DNA of 64,000 nt from Naegleria gruberi (taxonomy: Eukaryota): NCBI GenBank assembly GCA_000004985.1, contig GG738854.1; one strand, given 5' to 3'. How positions within the stretch are numbered: the stretch's first letter is position 1; each line of letters starts with the position of its first letter. The position numbers were made by a program, and so were the translations under genes. Positions 10,101-63,403 of the stretch are shown piece by piece. The notes under the pieces were generated by a model. That model did not search any database and was not told where the DNA came from. It worked only from the letters and a program-made list of their open reading frames with translations.

Positions 10101-11217
10101 NNNNNNNNNNNNNNNNNNNNNNNNNNNNNNNNNNNNNNNNNNNNNNNNNNNNNNNNNNNNNNNNNNNNNNNNNNNNNNNNNNNNNNNNNNNNNNNNNNNN
10201 NNNNNNNNNNNNNNNNNNNNNNNNNNNNNNNNNNNNNNNNNNNNNNNNNNNNNNNNNNNNNNNNNNNNNNNNNNNNNNNNNNNNNNNNNNNNNNNNNNNN
10301 NNNNNNNNNNNNNNNNNNNNNNNNNNNNNNNNNNNNNNNNNNNNNNNNNNNNNNNNNNNNNNNNNNNNNNNNNNNNNNNNNNNNNNNNNNNNNNNNNNNN
10401 NNNNNNNNNNNNNNNNNNNNNNNNNNNNNNNNNNNNNNNNNNNNNNNNNNNNNNNNNNNNNNNNNNNNNNNNNNNNNNNNNNNNNNNNNNNNNNNNNNNN
10501 NNNNNNNNNNNNNNNNNNNNNNNNNNNNNNNNNNNNNNNNNNNNNNNNNNNNNNNNNNNNNNNNNNNNNNNNNNNNNNNNNNNNNNNNNNNNNNNNNNNN
10601 NNNNNNNNNNNNNNNNNNNNNNNNNNNNNNNNNNNNNNNNNNNNNNNNNNNNNNNNNNNNNNNNNNNNNNNNNNNNNNNNNNNNNNNNNNNNNNNNNNNN
10701 NNNNNNNNNNNNNNNNNNNNNNNNNNNNNNNNNNNNNNNNNNNNNNNNNNNNNNNNNNNNNNNNNNNNNNNNNNNNNNNNNNNNNNNNNNNNNNNNNNNN
10801 NNNNNNNNNNNNNNNNNNNNNNNNNNNNNNNNNNNNNNNNNNNNNNNNNNNNNNNNNNNNNNNNNNNNNNNNNNNNNNNNNNNNNNNNNNNNNNNNNNNN
10901 NNNNNNNNNNNNNNNNNNNNNNNNNNNNNNNNNNNNNNNNNNNNNNNNNNNNNNNNNNNNNNNNNNNNNNNNNNNNNNNNNNNNNNNNNNNNNNNNNNNN
11001 NNNNNNNNNNNNNNNNNNNNNNNNNNNNNNNNNNNNNNNNNNNNNNNNNNNNNNNNNNNNNNNNNNNNNNNNNNNNNNNNNNNNNNNNNNNNNNNNNNNN
11101 NNNNNNNNNNNNNNNNNNNNNNNNNNNNNNNNNNNNNNNNNNNNNNNNNNNNNNNNNNNNNNNNNNNNNNNNNNNNNNNNNNNNNNNNNNNNNNNNNNNN
11201 NNNNNNNNNNNNNNNNN

Positions 11218-17601: not shown

Positions 17602-18074
17602 AACCCAAACCCAAACCCAAACCCAAGGGCAAACCCAAACCCAAACCCAAACCCAAAGCCAAACCCAAACCCAAACCCAAACCCAAACCCAAACCCAAAC
17701 CCAAACCCAAACCCAAACCCAAACCCAAACCCAAACCCAAACCCAAACCCAAACCCAAACCCAAACCCAAACCCAAACCCAAACCCAAACCCAAACCCAA
17801 ACCCAAACCCAAACCCAAACCCAAACCCAAACCCAACCCAAACCCAAACCCAAACCCAAACCCAAACCCAAACCCAAACCCAAACCCAAACCCAAACCCA
17901 AACCCAAACCCAAACCCAACCCAAACCCAAACCCAAACCCAAACCCAAACCCAAACCCAAACCCAAACCCAAACCCAAACCCAAACCCAAACCCAAACCC
18001 AAACCCAAACCCAAACCCAAACCCAAACCCAAACCCAAACCCAAACCCAACCCACCCAAACCCAACCCAAACCC
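17602..18074. repeat. Telomeric repeat tract (CCCAAA)n joined directly to coding sequence
   Basis: About 78 units of CCCAAA with sparse variants (cccaagggc, cccaaagcc, cccaaccca). It is preceded by the N-gap 16207-17601 and is followed immediately at 18075 by in-frame NHL-repeat coding sequence (t caa tta tat aat cct tat gga gtt gcc...). Confidence 0.9.
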
Positions 18075-24000: not shown

Positions 24001-24348
24001 ATTTATGGTAAGTTTTTTGTACATTTAACATTTTATTCATTTGAAAAGTCCCCTGAGCTTGGTTTGGGTGGAAAGTACTATTACAACACTGATATTTATA
24101 GTTTAGGAGTTACAATCTATCAAATCATGACAAAAGATACCTTTACATCCATAAGTCAATTATACCTAGGTAAAGACCAAACAGATGTAACCAAATTATT
24201 GTATAAAAAGTTACAAGAAAGTGGTCAATATTCTTCAAAACTTGTAGAATTGGTAGTATTAATGTTAACCAAAGATAACTTGATTAGACCACAAGCTCAA
24301 GATATTTTGGAGGATTATTATTTTGATGATTTGAAAAAGAAACAATAA
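18075..24348 (+). CDS. Receptor-type Ser/Thr protein kinase: NHL repeats + about 13 tenascin-type EGF repeats + transmembrane segment + kinase. N-terminally truncated by the telomere; 2 exons
   Basis: Exon 1 is 18076-24007 and exon 2 is 24049-24348. The intron at 24008-24048 starts gtaagt, ends aaaag, and is 41 bp. Splicing joins GTPIFM to [21 protein letters not shown], which is the APE region of the kinase. Kinase motifs present are [21 protein letters not shown] and DFGLAK. The EGF repeats follow CxGxSxxxxVCSxxGxCxxxNxCxCxxGYxGxxCExF. The transmembrane segment is [32 protein letters not shown] 1-bp insertion at about 18697 (acatcacggctatag vs acatccggctatag in the other copies) shifts the frame between NHL repeats. 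This may be a sequencing error or a true disruption. Confidence 0.8.
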
Positions 24349-29690: not shown

Positions 29691-30806
29691 ATGATGTTTG
29701 GTAACAATGACAGTGTCGAATCTTCTTTAGTATCATCATCACTTGGAATATCATCTAATTATGTTGTTAGTAACAGTAGTAATAATTCAACGTCCGAGGT
29801 TCTGTCATCTGCCAACAATCATGAAACATTTCTAAAGCTTGATATTGAATCACTCTTGACAGATCTTCACCAACAAGATAAACAACAGCAAATACATCAA
29901 AAACAACTTGAAATTGTTGCATCCTCTTCACACAATTCCAAAAATGGTAGCATGAACCAATTATCACCACAAGAACAATTTGTTGAAAATAGTTTGCTTG
30001 CATGTGGAGGCAGTATTGGCAGTAGAAGAAATGATGAACCATTCGAATACATTAATGATGACAGTAAAATCTCAGAGGATTCGGATAGTAAGATGCAACA
30101 TCAAAAAATTGGCGGATTGGAAAATTTTCATGAGAGCAAGAGGAAGGAAGTTGGATTGGATTGTTTTTCACCTACTGTAAGGATTGTTTCTAATAGTTTG
30201 AGTAGTGCAACTGTTTGTCAGCCTCCAATAATACGAAACGTTTCGAATACTTCACAACAACAGCAGCAAAAAATGTTTACCATTGTGCAGTACGACCCAC
30301 AACAACAGTCGAACAATTCAATTTCCTCTCCATTAACATATCACCACATTTCGCCCAGCAGCAGCAACCAGTTTCCCATTCTTTCGAATACAGTTTCTAC
30401 AGAAAGAAAATCAAAGAAATCTAAAGACAATTTTGGAAAGTCAAAACGAGAAAGAACAACCCTGCCTCCCTCGCTAGAATCTCAGCTCTTCCAAACAAAT
30501 AGCAACCCATCAACTTCAACCTTTCAATGGTCAGAAAATGAATTTCAAGAATTCACCTCAGGGCAACATGAAACTCAAAAGCGACAAAGAAAAGAAAGGG
30601 TTTATAAATTCTATGATTCAGGCCCGACTTCATTCAATTCCAATAGTGAGGATCCTCAATCGGCAACAAGTTTAATTTCAAATAATTCAATATTCGATTC
30701 AAATTCACCGAATTCTCCACCAATGAAAAAGAAGAAAAGGAAAAAGAAACAGTCCTCTACTGCTGCTGCATCTTCTTCCACGACTCAAAATCCTACCATT
30801 GAATAA
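29691..30806 (+). CDS. Ser/Asn/Gln-rich low-complexity protein with a basic C-terminal KKKKRKKK (NLS-like) tail; unknown function
   Basis: 371-aa ORF with an ATG start at 29691. Codon usage matches its neighbours. No recognisable domain. Confidence 0.5.
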   Translation: MMFGNNDSVESSLVSSSLGISSNYVVSNSSNNSTSEVLSSANNHETFLKLDIESLLTDLHQQDKQQQIHQKQLEIVASSSHNSKNGSMNQLSPQEQFVENSLLACGGSIGSRRNDEPFEYINDDSKISEDSDSKMQHQKIGGLENFHESKRKEVGLDCFSPTVRIVSNSLSSATVCQPPIIRNVSNTSQQQQQKMFTIVQYDPQQQSNNSISSPLTYHHISPSSSNQFPILSNTVSTERKSKKSKDNFGKSKRERTTLPPSLESQLFQTNSNPSTSTFQWSENEFQEFTSGQHETQKRQRKERVYKFYDSGPTSFNSNSEDPQSATSLISNNSIFDSNSPNSPPMKKKKRKKKQSSTAAASSSTTQNPTIE

Positions 30807-41801: not shown

Positions 41802-44024
41802 ATGAACAATAAGAAAAATGATAGAAACTCTAAACAAAAGCATGCTGCTGCTGGAAAGAAAAAACCATCATCTACTTCATCTAGTAGTACATTAGCCATT
41901 AATGATGATAGTGTTAACAACAATACATTTCAGACAGCAACATCGACATGCCATAACCATCACAAGGAAACAAATATGAGCAATGCGGGTGTTAATAGTG
42001 ATGATCATACCGAAGGACATCGCATAAAAGTTGAAAGTAGAATAATAGACTCTCCTACCAATACTTTTACGAATAGCGTTCCATCAGCACATCAACAATA
42101 TGACCTGAATAATGATACTAGAAGAGAATATTCTTCATCATCATCGTCATTGGTATCATCAAGTATTCAATCAAGAGGTTTGGAAGGAATATTCTCTCAA
42201 AAGAATGTGGACACAATGATGAATAATATTATTCAGCAAATATTGTCAACATTATCTGTGCAACAAGAACGCATGAATAACATTGAGCAAAAGCAGGACC
42301 ACGGTTTTGCATCCGGCAATACATCATCCATGTTGGTGCCGAATGCATCCACAGACCAACACCAAAAAATACAAGCATGTACCTCCCATGTAAACCATCA
42401 ACAACCTGAAACTCCATCATCCAATGCAAACCAGCAACAACTAGTTATGGATAGAGGTTCCACATCTTCATTCAATAATGGTAGTGGAGATGTTGGCCTG
42501 CAAGGTTCTTCTTCATTCCCATCTTCATCTCATTCCTTATCCAATAATACCACCAATTCTTCTTCTTCCACCAGTACATCTAGCTCGTCATTTAATGATT
42601 CTAAAAAGTTCATGCTCTCCCCTGGTACTAATTCCTCCACCCTAGAATTTATCAATGCTCATAACAATCCTATGTTAGCATCATCTGCAAATCAACAACT
42701 TCATTCACACAATGATCAGCTATCAGATGCTGGTATAAGTCAATTATTCGAGGAATGCAACCATTCAACATTCAACATTGAGCCGCATTCATCCTTGTCA
42801 CTTACAAAATCCACATCTGAATTCAACTTGGAAGATTATCGAGATTTATTCAGTGATGTCAGATCTGTAAGAGAGTTTGGAGATGATACCACCAGTCAAC
42901 AAGAACCAAACACCACCATGGTGGCCCCACAACTACAATCAAACAACAGCAATAGGCAGCAATCAGGTACAGTACTAGATAATTTAAATGAGCCAATGCT
43001 CTGGGGCATGCTTCGCCAATTGCTCAATAATGATACAAACCCTCAAAATGCTCATCAGTATGCATTCAACAATGTATCTGATACCACTTTGACCGCTAAT
43101 TCATCTAATGCTCCTTCTCCATACTATCAAATGGTCTCTACCACATCGAATATACCACCTCCATCAACCAATAATTTTCAACAGAATACCAATAATTTTC
43201 AGTCTCAACCTTATTCCAATGTTAACAATAATAATATGGCTCAATCTTCCCATAATAACAATAATGGAAATAATGGTAATAATATGAGGCAATTAATTTC
43301 TAATCTATATTCCAACTTGAATACAGGTCGACAATCACAACCTGTACTCAAATTGTCAACAATACCAAATTACCAATCAGAGGAAATAGCAGACGAGGAA
43401 GAAGATACAGAAGATTTCCAATTATCTAACCATCCAGCTGATCCACCAACCCTTGATTCAACCAAGCAAATTTTGGGAAGTATTAGAAAGACTCTGTCAC
43501 ATAAGACCAATAACACACCAAATCAATTTCAACACAAATACGGACAACAGGGAGTTCAACAAAAACCCAGTGATGGATTTATCAAATGGCTCTCTGGGCA
43601 ATCGAATCAACAGAATAAGGAGCAAGAAACTGAACTGGTGGAAGAAGCCACTCATCATCAACCAAATTCCAACATGTCTCAATTTAAATTTTATAATGAA
43701 ATGATCTCTGAAAGGAATAACATCCATCCTGCCTCCTCTTCTAGCGATAATACTCCTTCTCATAGTAATAACAGCAATAATCCAATGAAACCTCTCAAAA
43801 TTTTTCAACATGATCCACACAAACAAAAGAGGAAGAAGGATTTACAAAATGGAGAACACATTATCAATTTCCAATCCCCTCAATCCTCTTCAGATAGTAT
43901 AACAACCACAACCACCTCAACAGAATCCACCCCTTGTCCTGAAAAGAATGTAAAAAGAAAACGTAAAGACGACAAGAAGAATGAAACCTCCACAACGAAG
44001 AGTACAAAGAAAAGAAAAGACTGA
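41802..44024 (+). CDS. Low-complexity S/N/Q-rich protein with a Lys/Arg-rich C-terminus (likely nuclear); unknown function
   Basis: 740-aa ORF with an ATG start at 41802. It contains long Ser/Asn/Gln tracts and the C-terminal motif KRKRKDDKKNETSTTKSTKKRKD. Confidence 0.5.
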   Translation: MNNKKNDRNSKQKHAAAGKKKPSSTSSSSTLAINDDSVNNNTFQTATSTCHNHHKETNMSNAGVNSDDHTEGHRIKVESRIIDSPTNTFTNSVPSAHQQYDLNNDTRREYSSSSSSLVSSSIQSRGLEGIFSQKNVDTMMNNIIQQILSTLSVQQERMNNIEQKQDHGFASGNTSSMLVPNASTDQHQKIQACTSHVNHQQPETPSSNANQQQLVMDRGSTSSFNNGSGDVGLQGSSSFPSSSHSLSNNTTNSSSSTSTSSSSFNDSKKFMLSPGTNSSTLEFINAHNNPMLASSANQQLHSHNDQLSDAGISQLFEECNHSTFNIEPHSSLSLTKSTSEFNLEDYRDLFSDVRSVREFGDDTTSQQEPNTTMVAPQLQSNNSNRQQSGTVLDNLNEPMLWGMLRQLLNNDTNPQNAHQYAFNNVSDTTLTANSSNAPSPYYQMVSTTSNIPPPSTNNFQQNTNNFQSQPYSNVNNNNMAQSSHNNNNGNNGNNMRQLISNLYSNLNTGRQSQPVLKLSTIPNYQSEEIADEEEDTEDFQLSNHPADPPTLDSTKQILGSIRKTLSHKTNNTPNQFQHKYGQQGVQQKPSDGFIKWLSGQSNQQNKEQETELVEEATHHQPNSNMSQFKFYNEMISERNNIHPASSSSDNTPSHSNNSNNPMKPLKIFQHDPHKQKRKKDLQNGEHIINFQSPQSSSDSITTTTTSTESTPCPEKNVKRKRKDDKKNETSTTKSTKKRKD

Positions 44025-47047: not shown

Positions 47048-49085
47048 ATGATTAATAAATGGTTTGGCAGTTCGTCATCACCACCGCCACAAGTTTCTTT
47101 TGGAAAGATAAATTCACCAACCAAGTTACCAACTAATTCAAAAGTTTCGGATGAAATTGAACAAAATATTCGAAAGGCTGCAAATGCAATTTTAAAGCAA
47201 GATTGGGAAGTTTTGCAAAATATAAATCTGGAATTGATCATTAATGATAATTCGGTGCAAGGAGAAACATTATTAATGACAGCTGTCAGAAAAAAATGTT
47301 CAAGAGAAATTATTGAATTTTTGGCTCAAGTTTCGAATATTGATTTTATGGTGGTACGTAAATAATTTCACAATTTAAATAATTTAATGTTTGAATAGAA
47401 AAATGTAAGTTTTTTTATTCGAAATACAAGAAATAATTCGAAACTTTATTAGCTTGAGGGAGAAAGTCTTTTAGAAGTAGCTATTCGAAACAAACGATAC
47501 AATACTATAAATCTCTTGAGAAAGAAATACAAGGTTTCTAATGAAATTCGTCCCAAATATTTAATTCAATATTTGTATGCAAAATTGATTTACAGTGATT
47601 CGAATAATTTTGAGGACTTTAGTCTTGACAGTTCTGGAGAGATTAATTGCAATTTCCTTTCGAATTCAAAAGAAGTGGCTTGTCAATTTTTCGAATATGC
47701 AAATTCGTACAGGTCTCTATTGGAAAGTATTGTAAACAAGTCAACTGCCAATGCCATGTCAGTAAGATATATTCTTTCACACAAATCAGTGACATTTGAA
47801 TGTTGGGAGGAATATATTGTGAAAATGTTTGCTGAGATGATGGCGTACAGCTATCCTCATATAATTCAAAAACCAATTTCCTCACCAGAATTAGTCAATC
47901 CTGAAATTGACAGATCAGCAAGATGTGTCATTTCAGGAAATAGAAAAAACAAGCTAACAAAAGTCAAATTGAATGGAATCGAAGTTTTAGAGAAATTTTC
48001 TACAGAAAATGATTTACAAAATGAATTGGACGTTTTTAAGAAAATCAAATGTGACGGAGTTGTTAAATTATTACACGACTTTACTGATGAATATGGAATT
48101 ACTCATTTAATTTTGGAATTGATGGATTGTTCATTGGCTGATTGTTCAACACAATTGACTAATTTTGGAGTTGATAATTTTGGAATGTTAATTCAGGTAT
48201 TATTTATTTGTGTGAAATGTTGTGAAACAATGAAATATTTGCATCGTGATAATATTATTCATTATGATATTAAACCTGCAAATATTTTAATTAACATGAC
48301 AGAGGTTGATGGAATTAAACTTGTTAAGGATGTGAAAATTGCAGACTTTGATGTTTCATTAATTGTTGAAAATGTTGAAACTTATTCAGCAACCATTGGA
48401 GGAACATATCAATATATGGTAAGTCATAATAATGTGATTTCTTGTATTAAAAGTTGTATCAACAAAGGCACCTGAGTTATACGAAAGATTACCTTTCCAA
48501 AAAGCGCAAAATAACTCAATGGAATATGTGTTAACTGCATTTGACGTGTATAGTTTTGGAGTCACCATGTTTGAGTTATTGGCTCGTAGGCATGTTGAAA
48601 CGGATGAGAGATTAGAGTCATTTTTATCTGCTAAAGAACTATTAGAAACATTTCCTTGCTTAACACATGATCAAGCTAGAAAATTAGTCAAAATTGGAAA
48701 CAGTTGTTTAGAAGCAGATCCTAAAAAGAGACCACCATTCGAAAAATTACACAAGTACTTCCTTGAGGTAACTGCTAGTATTTTGAAGAAACCAAAATCA
48801 GAAAGAAATCAGTTATATTCTCTGAGTTTGCAGCAATCTGATAGATATAAGATTCCTCAGCCAGTTTCTAATAACCATTTCACCGAACAAATTACTAAGC
48901 CATCCATAATTGAAAGTCCTGAGAAAAAAGACAAAAAACAATTAACCAACCCTCGCAGGAACCATTCCTCTAATAAGAGAATTGAGAAAGTAAGAGATAT
49001 TGAGCATACAAAAGGCTCTCCAAATGGAGACGAGATTAGGGCAGAAAACAGTGTTGGCAATAGAGGAAACCCAACTCAAAGATAA
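47048..49085 (+). CDS. Ankyrin-repeat + Ser/Thr protein kinase, 3 exons
   Basis: Exons are 47048-47353, 47453-48418 and 48468-49085. Intron 1 is 47354-47452 (gtacgt...ttattag, 99 bp). It joins the ankyrin repeats ...GETLLMTAVRKKCSREIIEFLAQ and LEGESLLEVAIRNKRYNTINLL. Intron 2 is 48419-48467 (gtaagt...aacaaag, 49 bp). It restores the subdomain VIII motif GGTYQYM|APELYERLPFQ. The catalytic loop is LHRDNIIHYDIKPANILI and the DFG-equivalent is IADFDVS. Confidence 0.8.
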
Positions 49086-51596: not shown

Positions 51597-52930
51597 CTTT
51601 GTGTGGTATAGTGGTGGTGGTTATTAAAGTATACTTTGATTTGTTATTATTATAATGGTTTATAGAGTGGATTACGAGAGAAATTGTGTGTTGTTTGGTC
51701 AAAGAAGCTACTACTTGTTCTATTTTGCTAAAATTATAAATATCTCTAGAGAGAAATTAATGAATGTTTTTTTGTGTTGTCTATTGCGAATTTGCATTAG
51801 AGGAAGAACTTGGTACCAACATCAACATTATTTTTAGATTGTAAAGTATGCTTGCGCGCCATTTATTGTTGTTATATTTTTGAAATAATAATAAATAACG
51901 ATATTTGTTTAAAAAATAGAAGGACCTGTTGATGGATCTTCATCAAATATTTTCACAAAATCAAAAACATGAATCATGACTAATGAACATATGAATTCAT
52001 CCATTCCAGTATTAAATTGAGTATTAATTCATCAACATCTAGATTATGAATTTTCCAAAAACAAACGAACATCATCAACCACACTTCGGAAGTAAATTAG
52101 CGTCATCTCTGATAACAAAAGTATTTTACCACATTATCTCTTATTTCCGTAGTGCATGATTAAACAGTAGTCGATAATTAATTGAGATTCCAAACACATT
52201 AATTGATATCATGACATCCTTCTTTGCAAAATCATCACACTCCAACTCTACATCAATTGACTTTATGAAACACAATCATCCCAAATCGTAAACATGTCCA
52301 TCCTTTTATGTTCAGGCAAGCATTGATAATTTCCTTCCGAGGCCATCATTCACTCAATTTATTTTAATCCCATTTGATGAATACTTATTGCACAACAGGC
52401 TGACTCTTTTATTGGATTGAGTAATATTCAACTACCGATAATGATGTTATCGAAATACAAAACCCACATCAGTTGAATAAGGACGCAATTTAGAATGCCT
52501 TTCTGACCACCATCAACGCACACAAAGTGTCAGTTAAGCGCTTCTCTCCACTAAAATTGTTTGATGGCTCATGACAAATTGCCTCAAACGCAAGGAAACT
52601 ACAATTTTAAAAAAAAGCATTCTTTTAGCCTCATTGGTTTGTTACTCGTTTTTTTGAAGAATGCCAGCTATTGTTATGAGTGGCACTACTGCCACAAGTA
52701 AAGTGATGGGATTTCACGGTTCTTTATTGGTTTGTATTTTAATGATTTCACTCTTTTTGGTTGACAAATATCATCATACAATGCCATGCTAATGTTTTAT
52801 TGGAATATCTTGTTGGAAATAATAGAAAGGTGGAACCATTACTCAAACAATTGTAAGTTTGTTTACTCTTTCGAATAGAAATTTTTACTTTCCAATAATT
52901 CATTGATAGATCGGTGCTGTAATTTCAAGC

Positions 52931-55900
52931 ATGGTTATTGTTTCTGTTGTAGCTACTGTTATTATGATTTCAACTTCTGTAGGTTACAATCCACCAGAGC
53001 CAAAACCAGATTCATTACAGGCCTATAAGAATACTGCCTATACCATCTATCCTCTTTTGAATGATGTTGATCCAAAAGGAAACAATCTCACCCTCGTCAA
53101 CATTACCCAACCATTGTACGGAACAGCCAAATTACTCGCAGGTAATAAGGTTCAATATACCAGTCCAAAATATTACGCAGGAAATGAAACATTTTATTAT
53201 ACAGTTTATAATGGATATGGATATGCAGAGAGTTATGTTAAAATTGAAGTTTTGAATAGAGTTCCAGAAATTGTAACCATCTATAAGGATATTTCAAAGA
53301 ATAGTCAAAACAATATCATTGATGTTTTCAATTATGTTACTGAGAGTGGAGCTCAAATTAGTGATGTAGATGGTGATATTTTAACAATTGTTAGTATTAC
53401 AACACCAAATGTTGTAGGAGCTGTTGCTACCATTGTTGACTCTCAATTCATTTATTATACTCCACCAACAGGTTATAATAGTGCTGACTTTTTCAATTTT
53501 ACCATTACTGATGGAAATTCAACTGTTAGTGACACTATTTATATCAATGTTTTGAATGATGCTCCAACCAGTAATCCAGATGATTATGTCATTCCAAAGA
53601 ATAAGGTTGCCTCACTCAATTTATTGGCAAACGATTATGATGTCAATTCTGACAATATTACCATTGTTACAGCCAAGTCAGGACTTGGTTCTAAGGGTGT
53701 TGTTGTCTTTTCAGATGATGGTCTCTCTGCTGAATATTATCCATCTGCTGATACTAAGGTCTATAGTGATGCTTTCGAATATACAATCACTGATGGAGAT
53801 AAGGAGTCGGCTACATATGTTTTTGTCAGAGTCAAGAATTCCCCTCCAACCATGGAAAGCAAAACCATTACCATTCCAAAGAACTCTGAGAATAATACCA
53901 TTTCTTTAGAATATGCAGAGAGTGATATTCTCGATACTGTAACAATTACTGTTTCTAAAAAGCCAACTAGGGGAACTTTCACACTTTCACAATTGTCCAC
54001 CTCCAATAACGTTAATTATTTGAATCAACAATGGATGGTTGTAACTCAAAATACTTACACTCTTATTTATACTCCTGAAAAGAGTGTTTCCTACACTGAT
54101 AGCATTACATTCAAGATTGATGATGGCTATGACTTCACATATGCCACCTTTACTCTTAATATTGTCAATTTGCCACCTGTCACTATTAATGATACCATTG
54201 TTTGTCAAAAGAATCAACAAGTCACACTAGATGTTGTTGCCAATGATTATGACTTGAATGGAGATGTCCTCAAGTTATCTTCTTCAGCTGCAGATTGGAC
54301 CAATAGCCGTGGAGGTGCTACAGTCTCAAGAGTTGATGATGTTCAATTGAAATATGTTGCCAAGAGTGGTTTCTTGGGTGAAGATGTTGCCTCATATGTT
54401 GTAACTGATTCTGACAGCACTGCTGCATTGACTTCTACTGGTTATGTTATTGTCACAGTTGTCAATACTCCTCCTGTTGCTGTTGATGATACTATCACCG
54501 TTCCAAAAGGAGTTCTTTCCTCTTTGGATGTATTAATTAATGACAGTGATCCAAACGGAGATGCCATTGATTTCAATGCTACCAGCTTTACATCTACAAG
54601 TGGTGTTGTTTCCAGTGTCAATGTTACTAGTCCAAGAAATTTGTTGAATTATCAAGCTTTTGATGTTGTCTATCAAGATAAGATTACTTATACCATTAAG
54701 GATATTGATGGGGCTACTGCATCTGCCACTATCACCTTAAATGTTGTCAATACTGCTCCCGTTGCTAATGATGATACTATTAGTGTCAAGTGGAATACAA
54801 GCATTGTTATTCCTGTATTGGCCAATGATTATGATCAAAATCCTGCTGATAGAAGCGTTCTCACTGTCAAGACAATTAATGCTGTTTCTTTGAGTGGAGG
54901 TGTTGCTACTTCTTTCAATGGTGGTAAGAGCATCTTGTTCACTCCAACACCTGGTTTTGTTGGAAGCTTTGTTTTTACTTATACTATTACCGATTCTGAT
55001 TTAGAAAGTAATGCTGCAACTGTTACTGTCACTGTTTTTAATAGTGCTCCTGTTCCAGTCAATGATCAAGCTACTACTCACTGGCGTGATACATCAGTTA
55101 CTGTTGATGTGCTCAGTAATGATTCTGATCCAGAGGGTGATAATCTTTATATTCTCAGTGCTACTCAACCAAGTAAGGGTACTGTTTCAATTGTAACTCT
55201 CGATAATGGAAAGGATGGTATCAAATATTCCATCTCATCTTCTCAACAATTTGTCGGTGAGGAAACCATTACCTATACCGTCACTGATTATTCCATGACT
55301 GCAGTAGCTACTCTTAAAGTAACAGTTACAAATCAAGCACCAGTCGCCTTGGGAGATTATGTCAAATTGCATTGGAGTACCTCATCTATTACCATTCCAG
55401 TTTTGGCCAATGATACCGATGCCAACAATGATCCAATTACTATTGGCACAGTTACACCTCCTAATGGATTTGCTGGTACTATTACCAAGATTGATTCAAA
55501 TACCAAACTTCAATTCGTTCCAACTGCTCAATCAAAGGGTGTTCAAGTTGTAACCTATGTTGCTTCTGATGGACAAACCACAAGTGCAGGTGCAAGCTTG
55601 ACAATTGAAGTTACCAATGCTGATGCTCCTTCGGCAAGCACAATTTCTAAAACTGTTCACTGGTCCACTCAAACTACTGGTACTACCATTACATTATTCT
55701 CATCAGCTCGTGATGGAGATGGTGATTTGAATCAAATTGATTTGGCTAGCTCACCAACTGTTGCTCCATCTCACGGTACAGTTACATTGTCTAATGGGGA
55801 TTCCAATACTCTTCCAAACGTTTTGTACAAGCAAAGTACTAACTATCTTGGTTCTGATACTTTCAAGGTACAAGTTACTGATGGTGCAGATAATGCCATT

Positions 55901-58900
55901 TACACTGTCAATATGAACATTTACAACAACAAACCAACTCTCACTGCTGCCTCAACAACAGGTCATTGGTCCAAATTTGCTTCTGGTTATTCAGTTGATG
56001 CCATCTTGTTAACTTCAGCTCAAGATGCCGACTCTCAAGATACTCTTTCACTATCTTCAATTTCTCCAATGGATTTCATTACCATTAATGGAAATCAAAT
56101 CACATTCTTACCTACTGGCTCATTTGCTGGAACAAAGGTCTACACTGTTAATATTACAGATGGTATTGAAATTAGTTCTACATCTTGGACTGTCACTGTT
56201 CAAAACAACGATCCTTCTGCTGTTACAACTACTACAACAATTCACTGGTCTAAGGGATTTGAATTGATTGATGTATTATCTACCATTACAGACGCTGATT
56301 CTGATAGCATTGATTTCTCCCTTGTCAGTACTGCTGCTACAGCAAAAGGTACACCATCCATTCAAGTTTCTGGTTCCAAGAAATTAGTATTGTGGACTCT
56401 TCCATCAGTATCTGTTTCAATGTTAGGAAGTTCATCCTTCTCCATTCAATACACTGACGGATGGAAGACTAAAGAAGCCACCTACACTGTCTCAGTAACA
56501 AATTCTGCTCCAGTTGCCACAGATAAATCAACAACACTCCATTGGTCCAAATATTCAACTGGTGTTTTGATTGATGTCTTGTCAGGTGCTACTGATACCA
56601 ATTCAGAAGATAGTATTTCTTTGACCAGTTCACCATTTTCCTCTCCATCTCATGGAACAGTTTCAGTTAGTGCTGGTAAGGCACTCTATACACCAACACA
56701 AGGATATGTTGGTTCTGATTCATTCACATACTCTGTAACTGATGGTTTGGAAACTTCAACCAAAACTGTCAGTTTGACAATTACCAATCAAAAACCAGTT
56801 GCCAATTCTGACTCTGTCACTATTCACTGGAATACATCTTTTGTTGACATTAATGTATTAGGAAATGATGTAGATTCTGATGCCGAGGATACACCAATTA
56901 TCAAGACCGGCTCAGTTACTACACCAACTCAAGGAACTGCCTCAATTGTTGATGCCACTTTGGGTGTAATTAGATACACCCCATCCCAATCAGTGACAAC
57001 AGGAGCAAAGACCTTCACTTATAAAGTAACAGATGGAGCTGAAATTTCCACTAGTGCAGCAACCGTCACAGTTACTGTTACCAATGCTAATTCACCAAGT
57101 GCTTCTTCCTTGTCAAACACAATGCATTGGAGATCTGCTTTGGTAGGCACCAGCTACTCCTTATTCAATTCTGCTACTGATCCTGATGGTGATGCTCTCA
57201 AAATTAATATCCTTACTAATCCTTCTGGAACTTATTCTATTAACTCTGATGGAACTTCTGTCTTTTTCCAAACGGCTAGTGCAAGTAAGGGAGTTCAAAC
57301 ATGTACCTATACTATTTCAGATGGTTTGTCCACCTCCTCTTCTGCTACCATTACAACAACAGTCACAAACAGTATCCCAACAGCTCAAGATATCTCACTA
57401 AAATATCACTGGAGTATGATTGGAACTGGTTTAACTATTGATGCCATTTCTAAGGCAACTGATAGCGATGCTGCAGATATTGCCAACTTGAAATTGAATT
57501 CAGTTAGTCCCTCTCAAACCTATGGTAACGTTGTTTCAATGAGCCAAGATAAGACTAAGATTATCTATCAACCAACCAATTTACAAGTTGGTAATGATAC
57601 CTTCACATATTCAGTAACTGATGGATTGGACATTTCTACATCGTATACCGTTACAGTAGAAATTACCAGTACTCAAGCAGATCCATCTGATCAAATTTAT
57701 AGTGTTCATTGGAGAGCAGTACCTATTGATTTTAATGTCTTACAAAATGTTTCTAGCAGTGGAAGTGATCAACCAATTTTGGATGGAATTGATACTCCTG
57801 CATCACATGGTACAGTTGCAATTTCACAAGATCAAAAGTATGTGACCTACTCTATGGGAAGTGTCTACGTTGGAACTGACAAATTCGTTCTTAATTATCA
57901 CGTTGGTCTTAGTAATAACAAAATTACTGTAACTGTCAATATTTACAACACACAACCAACTGGTACCTCAAAGACTGTATCTACTCACTGGAGAACTCCA
58001 ATTAATATCAATTTACTTACAGGAGCCAATGATGCTGACTCTCTTGATATTCCAAATCTCTCTGTTCAACTCTCCTCAACACCTTCAAAGGGTGGCTTAT
58101 CCACAGTTTCTTCAGGTAGTGTCACTTACACACCAGAAACAAGTACAAGTGCCTTTATTGGTACCACGTCTTTCAATTTCAAAATTAATGACGGAAATTT
58201 ATTATCATCAAATGTACCTGTATCTGTCACTGTTACAAACACTGCTCCAAAGTCATCTTCAAAGAGTGTCAATGTCTTGTGGAGCGATTTTGTTTCTGGT
58301 AAGGAACTTTCTGTTCTCACATTATCTCCTGCTGATAGTGACGATAATAGTGATCCAATTAGAGTCAAATCATTCGGATCTACAAGTAAGGGAACTGTTG
58401 TAGCTAAAGGTGCATCAGGTTCTGATGCTAATATTGCCATTATTAAGGGTGTTACTGGAGAAAAATATATTGGTGCTGTCTCCTTCACCTATGTTGTGAC
58501 AGATGATGCAGCAAATGGTGATGTTACCACTACTGTCAGTGTCAATGTTTATAACAACAAACCAGTTGCAGTCTCTGATAGTGTCACAACACACTGGAAT
58601 GTCAATTATATTGATATTGATGTGTTGGCAAATGATTCTGATCCAGACTCTAATAGTTTGAGCATTGCCAGTGTTTATGGTTCATCTGCTACTACTGCTC
58701 CAATCATTACTGGTGGTAAGATTAGATATTATCCAAAGACCTCAACTGTTGGTACTGTTGATGTTTTCAAGTATGAACTCAGTGATGGAGCTCAATCAAG
58801 TGAAGGAACTGTCTCTGTCAACGTTACAAACACTAAACCAACAACTAGTTCATTCTCTCAAACCTCTGTATGGTCTGCTGTTAAGAATGGTGTATACTTC

Positions 58901-61900
58901 TCTGTGGTTGCTTCATCATCAGATGCTAATGGAGATTCCTTGTCATTAGCTTCCTATACTTCAATTACCCAAGCTCAAGGAGCATTGTCCACTGTTGGAA
59001 GTGGTTCTTCTGCTCAAATTTCATACGTCCCAACAAGTGGTTTCACTGGAGCAATCAAGCAAATTGTATTCACCATTTCAGATGGAAAGGAGACAAATAC
59101 TGGAACAATTGACGTCACTGTAACAAATAACTTGCCAACAGCCAACACTGGTGCATTTACCTATCACTGGAGACAAGCTTTATTAGCCAATAATATTGTC
59201 TTGACCTCTAGATTTAGTGACAATGATGGTGATTCTGTAACAGTTTCACAAGTCACTTCTGGTGGAAGAGCTGGTGTTACCCTTGTTGCAACCAACACTG
59301 TTAAATATCAATTAGCTTCTGCATGGAAGGGTTCCGATAGCTTTACTGTGCAATTCACTGATGGATGGGGAAGCTCAAGTGCAACTTTCCCAGTTACTGT
59401 AACAAACTCTGTTCCAGTTGCTTATGATATTGCTGTTAATGTTAATCACCTTTCTTCTTCCTCGGTCAGTATTCCAATATTGTCAAGAAGTGATGGTCTT
59501 AAACCAACAGATGCTGATTCTGCAGATTCAGGCGCTCTCACCATCTCTTCATTTACTCAGCCAAGTATTGGTACTGTTACATTATCATCGGGAACTTTTA
59601 CCTTCCAAAACGTTCAAGGCAATTTGGTAAACCAAACCTTTACTTACACAGTTTCTGATGGCTTTGAGACAGTAACTAAAACTATTACCGTAAATATTCT
59701 TGATCAATCTCCAACAGCTAATAGTGTTAGCAAGACCTATCACTGGAAGACTATTCAAAGTGGACTTGACTTGAACTTTATCACAGAATCTTCTGCTACT
59801 GATCCAGATGGAGATACATTGTCAATTTCTGCATTTACTCAACCACAAACAGGTACAGGTACTGTTGCTAGAAAAGCTGGCTCGACAACCAATCTCATAT
59901 ACACTCCACCAGCAGGAACAGCCCCACTTACTGCTACCTTTAAATTCACTGTCAGTGATGGTAGTATTTCAGTTGAAAACACGGCAACAATTTCCTTGAC
60001 AAATACTGCTCCAGTTGCTGTTTCTGATTCGGTTTCCAAGTTGTGGAATAATAAGGTCTTTACCATTAATCCACTTGCTAATGATTCTGATGGTAACGGA
60101 GACACAATTACAATCTCTAGTGTTGATTCAACTTCTTTGATTCGTGGTGCTACTTTAACTATCTCTTCTGATAAGCTCTCTATCACTTACACCTATACTG
60201 GAAGTGGTGCCACTGGCACAGATAGCTTTAAGTATACTATTACTGATGGAGCATCTACCTCAACTGCAACAGTGACCATCACATTTACCAATCAAGAACC
60301 TGTTGTTTCATCTGTTACTCAAAGTGTCAAGTGGAATTCAGCACTAACTGTTAATTCTTTATTGTCTAGTTGTTCAGATGCTGATGGAGATACCTTGTCA
60401 TTTGTTTCTATTTCTTCAGGTCAATATGGTTCTGTTGTCACCAATGATGCATCAGTTGGAAAGATTACCTATACACCAGCTGCATCTATTTCCTATACCA
60501 GTAAACCAAATTCTGGCAGATGGGAAGCTGTTGATGTATTGACATTCAAATGTACAGATGGTTTGGCTGAGAAGTCTGGCACTCTCTCTATCACTATTTG
60601 GAATACTCCACCAACAGGAAGTAACAAGAATGGAACCTTTACCAGAACTTACAGCTCTCCAACTCTATCAATTCCAGAGAGTACTTTCAAGACTGGTGCT
60701 AGTGATGCTGATTCCGATACCATTTCTTTGAGCGCTGTCCAAATGTATTCCTCATCAGATTCTTCATGCTCAGTGGTTTTGCAATCTGACAAGTCAGTTA
60801 AATTCACTTATGGTCAATCCTTTGTTGGAACTCAACAATTCTATTTTACTTTGAGTGATGGTCAATTGACTAATACATACACTTACACAATTACTATTTC
60901 CAACACTTTAACTTGTATGGATTACACTCTCACAACCACAAAGAATAGTGCAGCAACTCAATTCGAAGATTCCATCAAGAGTCAATGGGCAACAAACTTT
61001 GGTAGTGAATCAATTACACTCTCAATAGTATCTACAACCAATTTGAATTCTGTTGGTACCATTACAACTGTCAGCAGTAAGCTCACCTATACCCCCACTG
61101 CCAGAAGATCATGCACAGGAACTAATTGTTATGCTGTTTATAGAGTTTCTAACACTGCTTCCCAAACTGCTGATTGTAATATTTATGTAGTACAACCAAA
61201 TAATGCACCAACTGCAACTAATTGGGACTATGAATTCTCTATTAGAAGAGATGGTAACGATGCTCGTACTTTTGATTATTTGACAGACTCTGCTGCTACC
61301 GATTCTGATACCTCTGACAGTCTCAGCATTTCAATTTCTAGTACTGGAACATGTAGCTCTGCTGGTACTTTGTCAATCGTTAGTAATAAGATTAGCTTTG
61401 TAAGATCCTCATCATACGCTGATCAAAGATGTACATTTACATTGACAGTTAGCGATAATGATCTTTCAAATCCACGTACAACTTCTGTAATCATTGGTAT
61501 CAAGCCAATTAGCTCTCCACCAATTGCAGTCAGTGATTCCTTCACAGCTGTTTACAATAACAAGATTGATATCCTTGCATCTGACCTATTAACTAATGAC
61601 TACGATCCTCTTGGGGGTACTTTTGTATTTGCTGGTATTGATTGCCCGGATTCTACATATTGTAAAAATGCTGGAATACCAACCATTTTGAATCCAAGTG
61701 ATAGTGCAAATAATAGAATTATCAGAGTTTTACCAAAGACTGGAAGTTGTGAAGCCGAAAAAGTCAGATACAAGATTACTTCTGTCCAAGACAGTACCAC
61801 TGCCTATGCTGATATTAATATCAAGTATAGTAATTGTGTTTGTAGTCAAATATTCGATTTGATTTTCATTTTGGATGGTAGTGGTTCTATATCAGCAACC

Positions 61901-63403
61901 AATTGGAAGAATATGGTTTACTTTGTAACAAACATTACCAGTGGATTTGATGTTAGCTCAACCGGTACAAATATTGGTATTGTACAATACGGTACTGATT
62001 CTACTCTTCACTTATCTGTCAACGCTGGTACCTCAAAGACAACAGTCAATAACATGGTTTCAAGTATTACTCAAAAGAAGAGTAGTACAGCCACCATTTT
62101 GGGTATTAACACTGCTGTTAATAACATGATTAATTATGGTAGATCTTCTGTGGCTAACAAGCTGTTCATTCATATTACTGATGGTGAGTCAAATGTTCCA
62201 TCCAACTGTTACTCAATGTACTCTCTTTTGGGAGTAACTGATACCGTCTCAAACAGGTTCCCTGGAAAATCGTGTTTAGATTGTGACTGGACTAATTCTA
62301 GTTCTAAGGCTCAACCATGTGCTGAAGCAACAATTAGATCAGCTGAAATCAATTCTTGGAAGGGTTATCGTCAATTAACTATTGGTATAGGTGATGGTGT
62401 AACATCTTCATTCGGTATGAGTCAAATTCAAAAGATGAATTACGATCCTTTAAAGTTCTTCGTAGTTGACTGGAGTGATTTGACCAGTATTTATCAATCA
62501 ATTATCGATGAAGCTTGTAATACTGTAACTACCTCATCTTCTTACACTAAGAGACCAATTTCAGATTTTGATTATACCATTTCATTCACATCAAGAGTTG
62601 TAACTTCAAGAACTGCTTTTGATTCCACTTTTGAAATCACAACCTTTACCTACACATTGAAAGCTCCATCAAGCAGTGCAAGTGGTGCTATTACTCGTTT
62701 CACATTGGCCAACAATATCAATTCTACATATTATAATACCTACAATCCGTCATTCCCTGTTTATGTTGGTACTGATGTTGTTTCCTCACTCTCTGGTTTC
62801 ACTTGGGAATCCTTGCCAAATGGAAAAATTGTTTCTCTCGGGTCAACCAAGACCTTCTCTGTCTCTGTCTATGGAAATGTTCCAGCTGCAAGTATCTCTT
62901 ATGCAATTACTGGCTCATCTTCATATGCAGTTTCAACAATTACAGGACCCGCCACATCTGCCACCTATTCGTTCATTCCACCAACTTCTGAATCAACAAC
63001 ATTGAGAGCTACATACTGTTCTTCCACAAGATGTATGATTCGTGCAGTATTCACTTCTCCAATGCAATATGCTGATGTTGCTAAGGTCTGTAAATTGTGG
63101 AACTCTAAGGCCATTCCTGTAACCATCAAGACAGCCACAGAAAAAACAGAAGTTGCCAATATTTCAGGTGGATACACATTCTTCATTGGCTTGAATAAGG
63201 ACAGTGGATCTTGGAGATGGGTTGATGATAAGTCAGTTGCTTCCTACACTGATTGGAAATCTGGTGAGCCAAACAATAACAGTCCAACCAGTTACAGTGA
63301 TTATTATGTTTGGGCTCAATCAACAACTGCCAACTCTCCTTGGTGGAATGATGTTCCAATGGTTTACACAGTAACAGCTGTTGTTTGTCAATACAAGTTG
63401 TAA
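52931..63403 (+). CDS. Giant secreted adhesin-like protein (3490 aa): signal peptide, about 28 tandem bacterial-type cadherin-like/VCBS repeats of about 100 aa, VWA domain, C-terminal C-type lectin domain
   Basis: Uninterrupted 10.47-kb ORF with an ATG start at 52931. The N-terminus MVIVSVVATVIMISTSVG is hydrophobic. The repeats carry the signature (V/I)xNxAPxAxxDxxxxxxxxxxxxIxVLxNDxDxxGDxLxI, for example VVNTPPVAVDDTITVPKGVLSSLDVLINDSDPNGDAIDF, VVNTAPVANDDTISVKW..VLANDYD, VFNSAPVPVNDQATTHW..VLSNDSDPEGDNLYI and VTNQAPVALGDYV..VLANDTDANNDPITI. The VWA domain has a MIDAS motif: DLIFILDGSGSISATNWKNM...IGIVQYG...HITDGESN. The C-terminal CTLD reads CKLWNSKAIP...FFIGLNKDSGSWRWVDDKSVASYTDWKSGEPNN...WAQSTTANSPWWNDVPM..VCQYKL, with the EPN and WND Ca/carbohydrate-site motifs. 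Confidence 0.85.
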   Translation: MVIVSVVATVIMISTSVGYNPPEPKPDSLQAYKNTAYTIYPLLNDVDPKGNNLTLVNITQPLYGTAKLLAGNKVQYTSPKYYAGNETFYYTVYNGYGYAESYVKIEVLNRVPEIVTIYKDISKNSQNNIIDVFNYVTESGAQISDVDGDILTIVSITTPNVVGAVATIVDSQFIYYTPPTGYNSADFFNFTITDGNSTVSDTIYINVLNDAPTSNPDDYVIPKNKVASLNLLANDYDVNSDNITIVTAKSGLGSKGVVVFSDDGLSAEYYPSADTKVYSDAFEYTITDGDKESATYVFVRVKNSPPTMESKTITIPKNSENNTISLEYAESDILDTVTITVSKKPTRGTFTLSQLSTSNNVNYLNQQWMVVTQNTYTLIYTPEKSVSYTDSITFKIDDGYDFTYATFTLNIVNLPPVTINDTIVCQKNQQVTLDVVANDYDLNGDVLKLSSSAADWTNSRGGATVSRVDDVQLKYVAKSGFLGEDVASYVVTDSDSTAALTSTGYVIVTVVNTPPVAVDDTITVPKGVLSSLDVLINDSDPNGDAIDFNATSFTSTSGVVSSVNVTSPRNLLNYQAFDVVYQDKITYTIKDIDGATASATITLNVVNTAPVANDDTISVKWNTSIVIPVLANDYDQNPADRSVLTVKTINAVSLSGGVATSFNGGKSILFTPTPGFVGSFVFTYTITDSDLESNAATVTVTVFNSAPVPVNDQATTHWRDTSVTVDVLSNDSDPEGDNLYILSATQPSKGTVSIVTLDNGKDGIKYSISSSQQFVGEETITYTVTDYSMTAVATLKVTVTNQAPVALGDYVKLHWSTSSITIPVLANDTDANNDPITIGTVTPPNGFAGTITKIDSNTKLQFVPTAQSKGVQVVTYVASDGQTTSAGASLTIEVTNADAPSASTISKTVHWSTQTTGTTITLFSSARDGDGDLNQIDLASSPTVAPSHGTVTLSNGDSNTLPNVLYKQSTNYLGSDTFKVQVTDGADNAIYTVNMNIYNNKPTLTAASTTGHWSKFASGYSVDAILLTSAQDADSQDTLSLSSISPMDFITINGNQITFLPTGSFAGTKVYTVNITDGIEISSTSWTVTVQNNDPSAVTTTTTIHWSKGFELIDVLSTITDADSDSIDFSLVSTAATAKGTPSIQVSGSKKLVLWTLPSVSVSMLGSSSFSIQYTDGWKTKEATYTVSVTNSAPVATDKSTTLHWSKYSTGVLIDVLSGATDTNSEDSISLTSSPFSSPSHGTVSVSAGKALYTPTQGYVGSDSFTYSVTDGLETSTKTVSLTITNQKPVANSDSVTIHWNTSFVDINVLGNDVDSDAEDTPIIKTGSVTTPTQGTASIVDATLGVIRYTPSQSVTTGAKTFTYKVTDGAEISTSAATVTVTVTNANSPSASSLSNTMHWRSALVGTSYSLFNSATDPDGDALKINILTNPSGTYSINSDGTSVFFQTASASKGVQTCTYTISDGLSTSSSATITTTVTNSIPTAQDISLKYHWSMIGTGLTIDAISKATDSDAADIANLKLNSVSPSQTYGNVVSMSQDKTKIIYQPTNLQVGNDTFTYSVTDGLDISTSYTVTVEITSTQADPSDQIYSVHWRAVPIDFNVLQNVSSSGSDQPILDGIDTPASHGTVAISQDQKYVTYSMGSVYVGTDKFVLNYHVGLSNNKITVTVNIYNTQPTGTSKTVSTHWRTPININLLTGANDADSLDIPNLSVQLSSTPSKGGLSTVSSGSVTYTPETSTSAFIGTTSFNFKINDGNLLSSNVPVSVTVTNTAPKSSSKSVNVLWSDFVSGKELSVLTLSPADSDDNSDPIRVKSFGSTSKGTVVAKGASGSDANIAIIKGVTGEKYIGAVSFTYVVTDDAANGDVTTTVSVNVYNNKPVAVSDSVTTHWNVNYIDIDVLANDSDPDSNSLSIASVYGSSATTAPIITGGKIRYYPKTSTVGTVDVFKYELSDGAQSSEGTVSVNVTNTKPTTSSFSQTSVWSAVKNGVYFSVVASSSDANGDSLSLASYTSITQAQGALSTVGSGSSAQISYVPTSGFTGAIKQIVFTISDGKETNTGTIDVTVTNNLPTANTGAFTYHWRQALLANNIVLTSRFSDNDGDSVTVSQVTSGGRAGVTLVATNTVKYQLASAWKGSDSFTVQFTDGWGSSSATFPVTVTNSVPVAYDIAVNVNHLSSSSVSIPILSRSDGLKPTDADSADSGALTISSFTQPSIGTVTLSSGTFTFQNVQGNLVNQTFTYTVSDGFETVTKTITVNILDQSPTANSVSKTYHWKTIQSGLDLNFITESSATDPDGDTLSISAFTQPQTGTGTVARKAGSTTNLIYTPPAGTAPLTATFKFTVSDGSISVENTATISLTNTAPVAVSDSVSKLWNNKVFTINPLANDSDGNGDTITISSVDSTSLIRGATLTISSDKLSITYTYTGSGATGTDSFKYTITDGASTSTATVTITFTNQEPVVSSVTQSVKWNSALTVNSLLSSCSDADGDTLSFVSISSGQYGSVVTNDASVGKITYTPAASISYTSKPNSGRWEAVDVLTFKCTDGLAEKSGTLSITIWNTPPTGSNKNGTFTRTYSSPTLSIPESTFKTGASDADSDTISLSAVQMYSSSDSSCSVVLQSDKSVKFTYGQSFVGTQQFYFTLSDGQLTNTYTYTITISNTLTCMDYTLTTTKNSAATQFEDSIKSQWATNFGSESITLSIVSTTNLNSVGTITTVSSKLTYTPTARRSCTGTNCYAVYRVSNTASQTADCNIYVVQPNNAPTATNWDYEFSIRRDGNDARTFDYLTDSAATDSDTSDSLSISISSTGTCSSAGTLSIVSNKISFVRSSSYADQRCTFTLTVSDNDLSNPRTTSVIIGIKPISSPPIAVSDSFTAVYNNKIDILASDLLTNDYDPLGGTFVFAGIDCPDSTYCKNAGIPTILNPSDSANNRIIRVLPKTGSCEAEKVRYKITSVQDSTTAYADINIKYSNCVCSQIFDLIFILDGSGSISATNWKNMVYFVTNITSGFDVSSTGTNIGIVQYGTDSTLHLSVNAGTSKTTVNNMVSSITQKKSSTATILGINTAVNNMINYGRSSVANKLFIHITDGESNVPSNCYSMYSLLGVTDTVSNRFPGKSCLDCDWTNSSSKAQPCAEATIRSAEINSWKGYRQLTIGIGDGVTSSFGMSQIQKMNYDPLKFFVVDWSDLTSIYQSIIDEACNTVTTSSSYTKRPISDFDYTISFTSRVVTSRTAFDSTFEITTFTYTLKAPSSSASGAITRFTLANNINSTYYNTYNPSFPVYVGTDVVSSLSGFTWESLPNGKIVSLGSTKTFSVSVYGNVPAASISYAITGSSSYAVSTITGPATSATYSFIPPTSESTTLRATYCSSTRCMIRAVFTSPMQYADVAKVCKLWNSKAIPVTIKTATEKTEVANISGGYTFFIGLNKDSGSWRWVDDKSVASYTDWKSGEPNNNSPTSYSDYYVWAQSTTANSPWWNDVPMVYTVTAVVCQYKL

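Follow-up and report, generated by a model that had tools for sequence, protein, structure and literature searches.

The stretch of Naegleria gruberi DNA analysed here (the window: 64,000 nucleotides (nt) of contig GG738854.1, assembly GCA_000004985.1) carries on its + strand, at 52661-63403, a three-exon gene for a predicted giant protein of 3,529 amino acids (aa). In this protein a short N-terminal tail and a membrane anchor are followed by a long array of tandem-95 repeats (the stalk) and by a head made of a VWA domain, a conserved middle domain and a C-type lectin-like domain (CTLD). Most of the gene is a single open reading frame (ORF), 52931-63403, which runs uninterrupted for 3,490 codons. 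Since stops are expected by chance at roughly 7% of codons in this region (our own arithmetic, at 36-38% GC), a frame of this length excludes chance, in agreement with a sequence-only reading of the window that had singled out this ORF.

That reading had described the gene as intronless, which proved incorrect, and had also allowed for upstream micro-exons, which were found. By enumerating in-frame GT..AG splice models we obtained a two-intron model in which the ORF forms the last of three exons. Exon 1 (52661..52729, + strand) has 23 codons, MPAIVMSGTTATSKVMGFHGSLL, and would encode an N-terminal cytoplasmic tail; it is supported by the GT..AG model and by the alignment of homologues. Intron 1 (52730..52825, 96 nt, GTTTGT...AATAG) separates it from exon 2 (52826..52852), a nine-codon micro-exon, KGGTITQTI, that fits the LLKGGTITQTI motif conserved in all members of the family described below. 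The in-frame stop at 52907-52909, by which the ORF is bounded, falls within intron 2 (52853..52909, 57 nt, GTAAGT...GATAG), and exon 3 (52910..63403) adds seven upstream codons to the ORF, giving an open frame of 3,497 codons that ends with the stop codon at 63401-63403. The predicted product starts MPAIVMSGTTATSKVMGFHGSLL-KGGTITQTI-IGAVISSMVIV..., and this spliced N-terminus aligns residue by residue with Willaertia magna, both N. gruberi paralogues and several metagenomic members.

The DNA of N. lovaniensis has the same exon 1 and a GTAAG donor upstream of the annotated start, and the position of intron 1, after ...SLL, is common to both species. Intron 1 is absent from Willaertia, where the same N-terminus is encoded without introns and the gene is a single exon, and intron 2 is absent from both N. 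lovaniensis and Willaertia. The N. lovaniensis record XP_044542534.1 begins inside the membrane span and leaves out the true N-terminus: the true first exon, MPEQITLGSTTAARKVIGFNLSLL, lies unannotated at ~5400-6000 of PYSW02000056.1, followed by the GTAAG donor, and the continuation, KGGTITQTIVGG..., is likewise upstream of the annotated start and unannotated. For the N. gruberi gene, exact look-ups retrieved no protein record for either product, the 3,490 aa encoded by the ORF or the 3,529 aa predicted after splicing. Both gene models are thus corrected here, one having been without a protein record and the other without its N-terminus.

The predicted tail, 31 residues long with a net charge of +2, leads into a transmembrane signal-anchor at 52910..52981 (+ strand; IIGAVISSMVIVSVVATVIMISTSV, the first residue of which comes from the last codon of exon 2). 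This hydrophobic segment of ~24 residues, conserved in all family members, reaches 2.6 on the Kyte-Doolittle scale over 19 residues, and no other above-threshold segment of the protein has the character of a membrane span. A weaker hydrophobic stretch is located in repeat 2, and no C-terminal anchor or second membrane span was found across the 3,529 aa. The topology is most likely type II, with the N-terminus inside and the remainder outside, and given the N-terminal signal anchor the earlier description of the protein as secreted is probably wrong. The hydrophobic segment could instead be cleaved as a signal peptide, releasing a soluble or wall-bound giant glycoprotein of the matrix or cyst wall. 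Such a product would fit the single membrane span and missing C-terminal anchor, the high content of Ser+Thr (28%), the 29 N-glycosylation sequons, the VWA and lectin domains typical of matrix proteins, and the signal-peptide-like start that the ATG at 52931 would yield. By homology, however, a conserved N-terminal tail of ~32 residues precedes the hydrophobic stretch, which has the length of a signal anchor and is conserved as such across the family. We consider release from the cell improbable, and treat the protein below as membrane-anchored.

The gene is an authentic part of the N. gruberi genome. The bacterial-looking repeats, and the scaffold gaps and internal telomere-like arrays nearby, might raise the suspicion that the gene is a bacterial contaminant, a product of misassembly or no longer functional, but the ORFs at 29691-30803 and 41802-44021 correspond exactly to XP_002680156.1 and XP_002680158.1 of N. 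gruberi (665-kb scaffold), and they are contiguous with the giant gene, the interval 18075-64000 being free of assembly gaps. Moreover the gene has spliceosomal introns, ordinary eukaryotic genes on its flanks, an open frame of more than three thousand codons and collinear orthologues in two further assemblies; a gene for the proteasome subunit RPN1, which begins at 63678 in the window, 275 bp downstream of the giant gene, is also found near the orthologue in N. lovaniensis. Codon usage is host-like, as had been stated: the relative synonymous codon usage (RSCU) correlates with that of the neighbours at r = 0.90 (their own range being 0.78-0.94), and the GC content at third codon positions (GC3) is 0.26. 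Contamination is excluded, as the sequence-only reading had argued, and the probability that any of these explanations applies is negligible. Since Tandem Repeats Finder reported no DNA-level tandem repeats within the gene (score of at least 100), the repetition exists at the protein level only, so the size of the gene is real and does not reflect an assembly expansion, again as had been proposed.

The stalk and the head

The stalk occupies 52979..61822 (+ strand) and consists of 30 tandem repeats of ~95-105 aa of the tandem-95/Big_9/Cadherin_5 type. With a hidden Markov model (HMM) derived from the protein's own sequence, 30 units of ~97 aa each are resolved over ORF residues 17-2964, where about 28 had been counted previously, with a pairwise identity of 26% on average and 47% at most. 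The type of repeat had been recognised correctly, as bacterial cadherin-like and distinct from classical cadherin or CSPG repeats. Pfam Big_9 (PF17963) matches in 23 stretches (6e-234, 758 bits against a cut-off of 23.6), the NCBIfam tandem-95 model (NF012211) matches in 24 (7.8e-166, 538.8 bits against a cut-off of 90), and Pfam Cadherin_4 and Cadherin_5 also match the array.

Three other assignments were rejected. There is no match to classical Pfam Cadherin (PF00028) at E<=0.01, and the protein has an N-terminal anchor and no C-terminal span or tail. For the CSPG repeats of FRAS/FREM proteins, Cadherin_3 (PF16184) sums to 50.7 bits, none of its stretches being significant singly, where Big_9 reaches 758 bits. 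Membership among the RTX/type I-secreted adhesins (LapA, FrhA, MpIBP, BapA) fails on the lack of any HemolysinCabind/RTX match in Pfam and NCBIfam, and on the two ends of the protein, a CTLD at the C-terminus and a membrane span at the N-terminus.

In RTX adhesins, Ig/cadherin-like units are strung into a long stalk that carries ligand-binding domains towards its distal end. The window protein shares this design, and shares the repeat family with bacterial tandem-95/Big_9 surface proteins and RTX adhesins of the FrhA, LapA and MpIBP type. It differs from the RTX adhesins in having neither RTX nonapeptide repeats nor a type I secretion signal, and in being anchored by a eukaryotic-style N-terminal membrane span. 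VWA or Lectin_C occurs in none of the 120 best bacterial matches.

The fold of the repeats was assessed by modelling units R13-R14 with AlphaFold on an alignment of 29 overlapping repeat pairs taken from within the protein. Confidence is high (predicted local distance difference test (pLDDT) 91.6, predicted TM-score (pTM) 0.80), and the model adopts a cadherin-like/Ig-like beta-sandwich fold. Foldseek matched it to titin Ig pairs, to protocadherin-15 and cadherin-23, and to cadherin-like domains of a fucoidanase. Among single domains, the best structural match was a cadherin-like domain from FrhA, an RTX adhesin of Vibrio cholerae, at 26% identity; at the sequence level no solved relative of a single repeat was detectable (best E 0.25). 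The resemblance to long metazoan cadherins (cadherin-23, protocadherin-15, CELSR) does not extend further: those proteins are type I, whereas the window protein is predicted to be type II, with no Pfam Cadherin match, no catenin-binding tail and only 12-21% identity.

Two sets of positions characterise the repeats. At the calcium-motif columns 32, 36 and 82, Asp is present in 70-90% of the window repeats, while the Asp/Asn columns 11, 29 and 30 of the motif are kept in ~40% of them, compared with 97-98% of 909 bacterial repeats. The second is an H-W signature, a Trp at column 17 usually preceded by His, which is found in 67% of the window repeats and 48% of the other eukaryotic family repeats but in 0 of the 909 bacterial ones, where column 17 is mostly Glu with D-E-D around it.

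The head begins with a VWA domain at 61832..62521 (+ strand; Pfam VWA, 73-81.6 bits against a cut-off of 23.8), the Pfam match spanning profile positions 1-119 of 174 only. Its metal-ion-dependent adhesion site (MIDAS) is intact, as had been claimed: on alignment with the integrin alpha1 I domain (3.6e-12), DGSGS (61874-61888), the Thr of STATILG (within 62084-62116) and TDGES (within 62174-62194) fall on the MIDAS residues, and the DxSxS is kept throughout the family. The best solved relatives are collagen VI alpha3, the integrin alpha1, alphaM and alphaX I domains, and apicomplexan MIC2/TRAP. The window domain differs from all of these by a Cys-rich insert after the TDGES strand (62195-62332, + strand), which is specific to the family and common to all of it. 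In the window copy this insert is partly eroded, with four to five cysteines lost, and at ~62350-62400 about 16 residues after INSWK are missing in comparison with N. lovaniensis and Willaertia.

The VWA domain is followed by a middle domain of ~160 residues (62522..63010, + strand) with PSFPVY...GFT.ESLP...GP motifs that are kept in six family members. No Pfam or PDB sequence match was found for it, and a single-sequence AlphaFold prediction of the C-terminal 526 aa (pLDDT 32) gave no usable model.

The CTLD forms the last 130 residues (63014..63400, + strand), with EPN at 63266-63274 and WND at 63344-63352. In a phmmer search against PDB it matched CLEC10A (4e-7) and langerin (5e-6) over residues 25-124 of 133, as well as mincle and MBP; the EPN aligns with the QPD of CLEC10A and the WND with the WND of Endo180. 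A profile of six family members matched multi-CTLD receptors at 3.3e-23, single CTLDs at 1.7e-8 and CEL-I at 3.8e-8 (profile positions 173-295), and Pfam Lectin_C recognises the N. lovaniensis orthologue (5.8e-9), which scores 37.1 bits where 22.6 are required. Among the six aligned members the N-terminal Cys pair (C..S..RC) and the alpha1 Cys of the CTLD are invariant, and the C-terminal Cys (VVCQ) is present in five, being absent in P0001, a metagenomic fragment described below. The nearest solved relatives of the VWA domain and the CTLD are eukaryotic (collagen VI, integrin I domains and TRAP/MIC2 for one, metazoan CTLDs for the other), as the sequence-only reading had said.

A conserved heterolobosean family

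Relatives were sought by querying 1.84 billion representative sequences exhaustively with HMMER, using the last 526 aa of the protein. The family includes orthologues in N. lovaniensis (XP_044542534.1, 3,429 aa, head identity 61%) and Willaertia magna (KAL9644294.1, 3,559 aa, 45%), and two paralogues in N. gruberi (XP_002672240.1, 2,816 aa, and XP_002676992.1, 2,366 aa, both 42%). Over the full length, in one high-scoring segment pair each, the orthologues are 61.7% (N. lovaniensis) and 45.6% (Willaertia) identical to the window protein. All four homologues carry Big_9 arrays plus VWA, and they resemble the window protein throughout, with the anchor, the tandem-95 array, the VWA with its Cys-rich insert, the middle domain and the CTLD; they differ in that the paralogues have internal array deletions and that EPN and WND occur in the window copy only. 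They are annotated as hypothetical, although UniRef names XP_044542534.1 'Tandem-95 repeat protein'.

The architecture, judged by sequence, is thus that of a conserved heterolobosean family, present in databases but uncharacterised, and not a one-off. The earlier claim that it is not a described family stands as far as the literature goes, since in literature searches on Naegleria and on tandem-95 proteins no description of it came up and a report on Vermamoeba, discussed below, was the only related one; it does not stand as a claim of uniqueness, given the orthologues, paralogues and database entries. The family is an uncharacterised variant of the giant repeat adhesins built from known domains, with nothing mechanistically unprecedented.

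A wider family, in uncultured heterolobosean-like eukaryotes, comprises metagenomic and EukProt proteins that have the tail/anchor motif at the N-terminus, the array and a VWA of this variant, and these proteins end directly after the VWA or in another domain. In four more distant members (P0230, P0250, P0243 and P0252) the middle domain and CTLD are replaced by a ~230-aa C-terminal domain (YCGQIV...LFQITNCG...), for which no Pfam or PDB sequence match was found. This replacement suggests that head domains have been swapped within the family. One metagenomic member sits on a 53-kb eukaryotic contig beside MCM8, WD40, Ras and RRM genes; because the best named matches of the MCM8 are N. fowleri, Willaertia, N. 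gruberi and Acrasis, the source is probably an uncultured heterolobosean. Outside the family, the closest CTLD in the exhaustive search lies on an 18-Mb chromosome, in a multi-exon gene that combines Lectin_C with fn2, a composition that suggests an animal mannose-receptor-type protein.

Other searches were less informative. A word-indexed search with the C-terminal 540 aa returned only the fragment P0001 and missed the long orthologues, including the 61%-identical one; this search did not return long proteins, so the absence of eukaryotic matches in it is not relied upon. The C-terminal module was also looked for by pattern scans, sensitive to close relatives only, and no relative turned up in contigs of JGI metagenomes, in genomes of GTDB bacteria and archaea or in viral contigs of IMG/VR. 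P0001 itself is a 753-aa homologue on a 5,074-bp contig (ENA metagenome ERZ929261) that starts in the middle of an R29-like unit with no ATG, and the 2.5 kb upstream hold no repeat-coding sequence and two opposite-strand genes. P0001 may be a short member of the family whose 5' exon has gone unrecognised; otherwise the contig is chimeric.

Origin of the repeats and proposed role

The array is old. Each of the 30 units of the window protein best matches the unit at the corresponding position in the N. lovaniensis protein (45-78% identity), nearly every unit does so in the Willaertia protein (36-57%, with R09 as the exception), and units 1-8 are collinear even with distant metagenomic members. 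This unit-by-unit correspondence implies that the array was complete before Naegleria and Willaertia diverged, and that each unit has since been maintained individually.

Where the repeats came from is less certain. When a 600-aa repeat query was used, every named protein among the best 120 matches was bacterial, from many phyla, and the best match was located among bacterial housekeeping genes; the word-indexed search behind this list returned no long proteins, which biases it towards an all-bacterial result. Compared unit by unit with 120 bacterial proteins, the repeats reach 30-49% identity and 33-64 bits over partial units, no better than distant eukaryotic members, and no donor lineage stands out. 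The H-W signature, found in eukaryotic repeats and absent from the bacterial ones, argues for a single origin of the eukaryotic ones, and the calcium-motif positions are relaxed besides. One ancient acquisition followed by divergence fits this combined evidence, with the direction and timing of transfer drawn from similarity and not from phylogenetic proof. We regard a horizontal, ancient origin of the stalk from bacteria as plausible and slightly favoured, so that of the earlier proposal the bacterial type of the repeats is confirmed and the transfer is a reading of similarities. If a transfer occurred, it predates the Naegleria-Willaertia split, because the array was already complete before it.

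The repeats might instead be an old eukaryotic inheritance, or have been transferred into a much deeper ancestor, and lost in most lineages. The age of the array and the collinearity of units 1-8 fit such a history, as do the eukaryote-specific features common to the repeats, the lack of a compositional trace of transfer and the lack of an outstanding donor. Also relevant here is the amoebozoan Vermamoeba vermiformis, in which g6416, a highly expressed tandem-95 homologue, has been interpreted as a candidate bacterial transfer (PMC7125106): its presence makes an older eukaryotic occurrence, or several transfers, possible. Like the window gene, g6416 is a gene of a free-living amoeba, and its best match is a bacterial tandem-95 protein; it belongs to another supergroup, which extends the theme beyond Heterolobosea, and the likeness is one of description, the paper giving no architecture. 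On the other side, the Pfam and NCBIfam models of the repeat are bacterial families, the named top matches are all bacterial and from many phyla, and the repeat was not met in well-sampled eukaryotic groups, though no systematic search was made. Deep inheritance appears to us a minority possibility, and an ancient bacterial origin is the reading followed here.

Taken as a whole, the protein is best explained as a membrane-anchored stalk-and-head protein with a bacterial-derived stalk and a role in adhesion or prey capture, an explanation we hold to be fairly probable. A stalk module would have passed from bacteria into an early heterolobosean and would then have been joined to a eukaryotic-type anchor and to a VWA and lectin head, still ahead of the Naegleria-Willaertia split. 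If each of the 30 domains spans ~4.5 nm, on the analogy of EC domains in cadherins, they could hold the head ~100-130 nm off the plasma membrane, with calcium at the retained Asp-rich motifs possibly stiffening the stalk. The head may bind ligands via a metal ion at the predicted MIDAS site, and that of the window copy may additionally bind mannose-type sugars through the putative EPN/WND site. For a bacterivorous amoeba the obvious roles are probably substrate adhesion, or the capture or recognition of bacterial prey.

In overall layout there is also a parallel with the type II C-type lectin receptors (DC-SIGN, langerin, the asialoglycoprotein receptor), which likewise have a cytoplasmic tail, a signal anchor, an extended neck and a C-terminal CTLD with an EPN-type site. 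Their neck is a coiled coil, whereas that of the window protein would be 30 cadherin-like domains plus a VWA, and the window family lacks the inner CTLD disulfide and does not conserve the sugar-site residues among relatives. The protein thus belongs neither to these receptors nor to the RTX adhesins.

Several observations weigh against parts of this explanation. Pfam Lectin_C (PF00059) gives no match to the window protein even at E<=10, and the inner disulfide pair that flanks the long loop is absent from the CTLD in six of six members. EPN/WND is present in the window copy only: N. lovaniensis has NPN/WDD in its place, and Willaertia and the two paralogues have not retained it; since the motif is unconserved even in the closest orthologue, the earlier designation of a canonical Ca-dependent lectin holds for the motifs, which are present and aligned, and is limited to the window copy. 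In the stalk, the first calcium-motif Asp/Asn positions are far less conserved than in bacteria, which makes calcium rigidification uncertain.

The most specific form of this proposal is a 'fishing-rod' receptor ~100 nm long, in which a captured bacterial adhesin stalk, a eukaryotic anchor and a VWA/lectin head would serve to catch or recognise bacterial prey, with heads swapped between lineages (a CTLD in Naegleria and Willaertia, another domain elsewhere). We offer it tentatively, as an idea that is rather unlikely to be right in full. If true, a predator would be re-using the adhesion hardware of its prey, and a receptor combining cadherin-like repeats, an integrin-type VWA and a canonical EPN lectin would have been invented independently outside the metazoa.

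Much work has been done on the giant repeat adhesins of bacteria and animals, and hardly any on those of free-living protists. The family described here combines a bacterial-type cadherin-like stalk, an integrin-type metal-site domain, a CTLD and a predicted type II anchor, which would mean that 'metazoan-looking' adhesion modules were assembled independently outside animals. It also provides a concrete, ancient candidate for the transfer from bacterium to eukaryote of a structural module, not a metabolic gene, and, for Naegleria, the genus that includes the pathogen N. fowleri, a candidate that can be tested for a part in adhesion to substrates or recognition of prey.

Other features of the window

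Upstream of the giant gene lie genes for an NHL-EGF-kinase receptor, a DUF4116 kinase, TLDc, LanC-like, MORN/VPS9 and BTB proteins, a split kinase and a RING finger protein. The split kinase consists of two adjoining + strand ORFs, 47516-48472 and 48519-49082, which correspond to the N- and C-terminal halves of one protein kinase domain and are consistent with a single gene having a short intron of ~46 nt between them.

The part of the window furthest from the giant gene contains two arrays of (CCCAAA)n, equivalent to (TTTGGG)n, each ~475 bp long, at 6649-7123 and 17602-18074. Runs of N occupy 6581-6648, 7765-11217 and 16207-17601, and each telomere-like array starts right after one of them. 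The giant gene had been placed about 35 kb from a chromosome end: a telomere-like array does end at 18074, 34.9 kb upstream of the gene, but it lies inside the scaffold, after an N gap. The arrays look like contigs that start at chromosome ends and have been joined within the scaffold. A survey states that nothing is known about Naegleria telomeres (PMC3622300), and we found no literature report of a Naegleria telomere repeat; (TTTGGG)n would be an unusual one, if it is that of N. gruberi.

The surroundings of the two arrays are partly duplicated. The same 354-aa minus-strand ORF occurs at 1477-2541 and at 14045-15109, one copy upstream of each array; both copies carry the same 83-bp two-copy tandem repeat and have no Pfam match. 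Redundant scaffolding could account for this, as could the duplication of a subtelomeric region. Arrays of NHL repeats, 168 bp in period, also adjoin both telomere-like arrays, at 4625-6386 and 18074-18981, and the second of them runs into the ORF 18584-24028, which encodes 1,814 aa with NHL, teneurin-type EGF and protein kinase domains and looks like a receptor-kinase gene.

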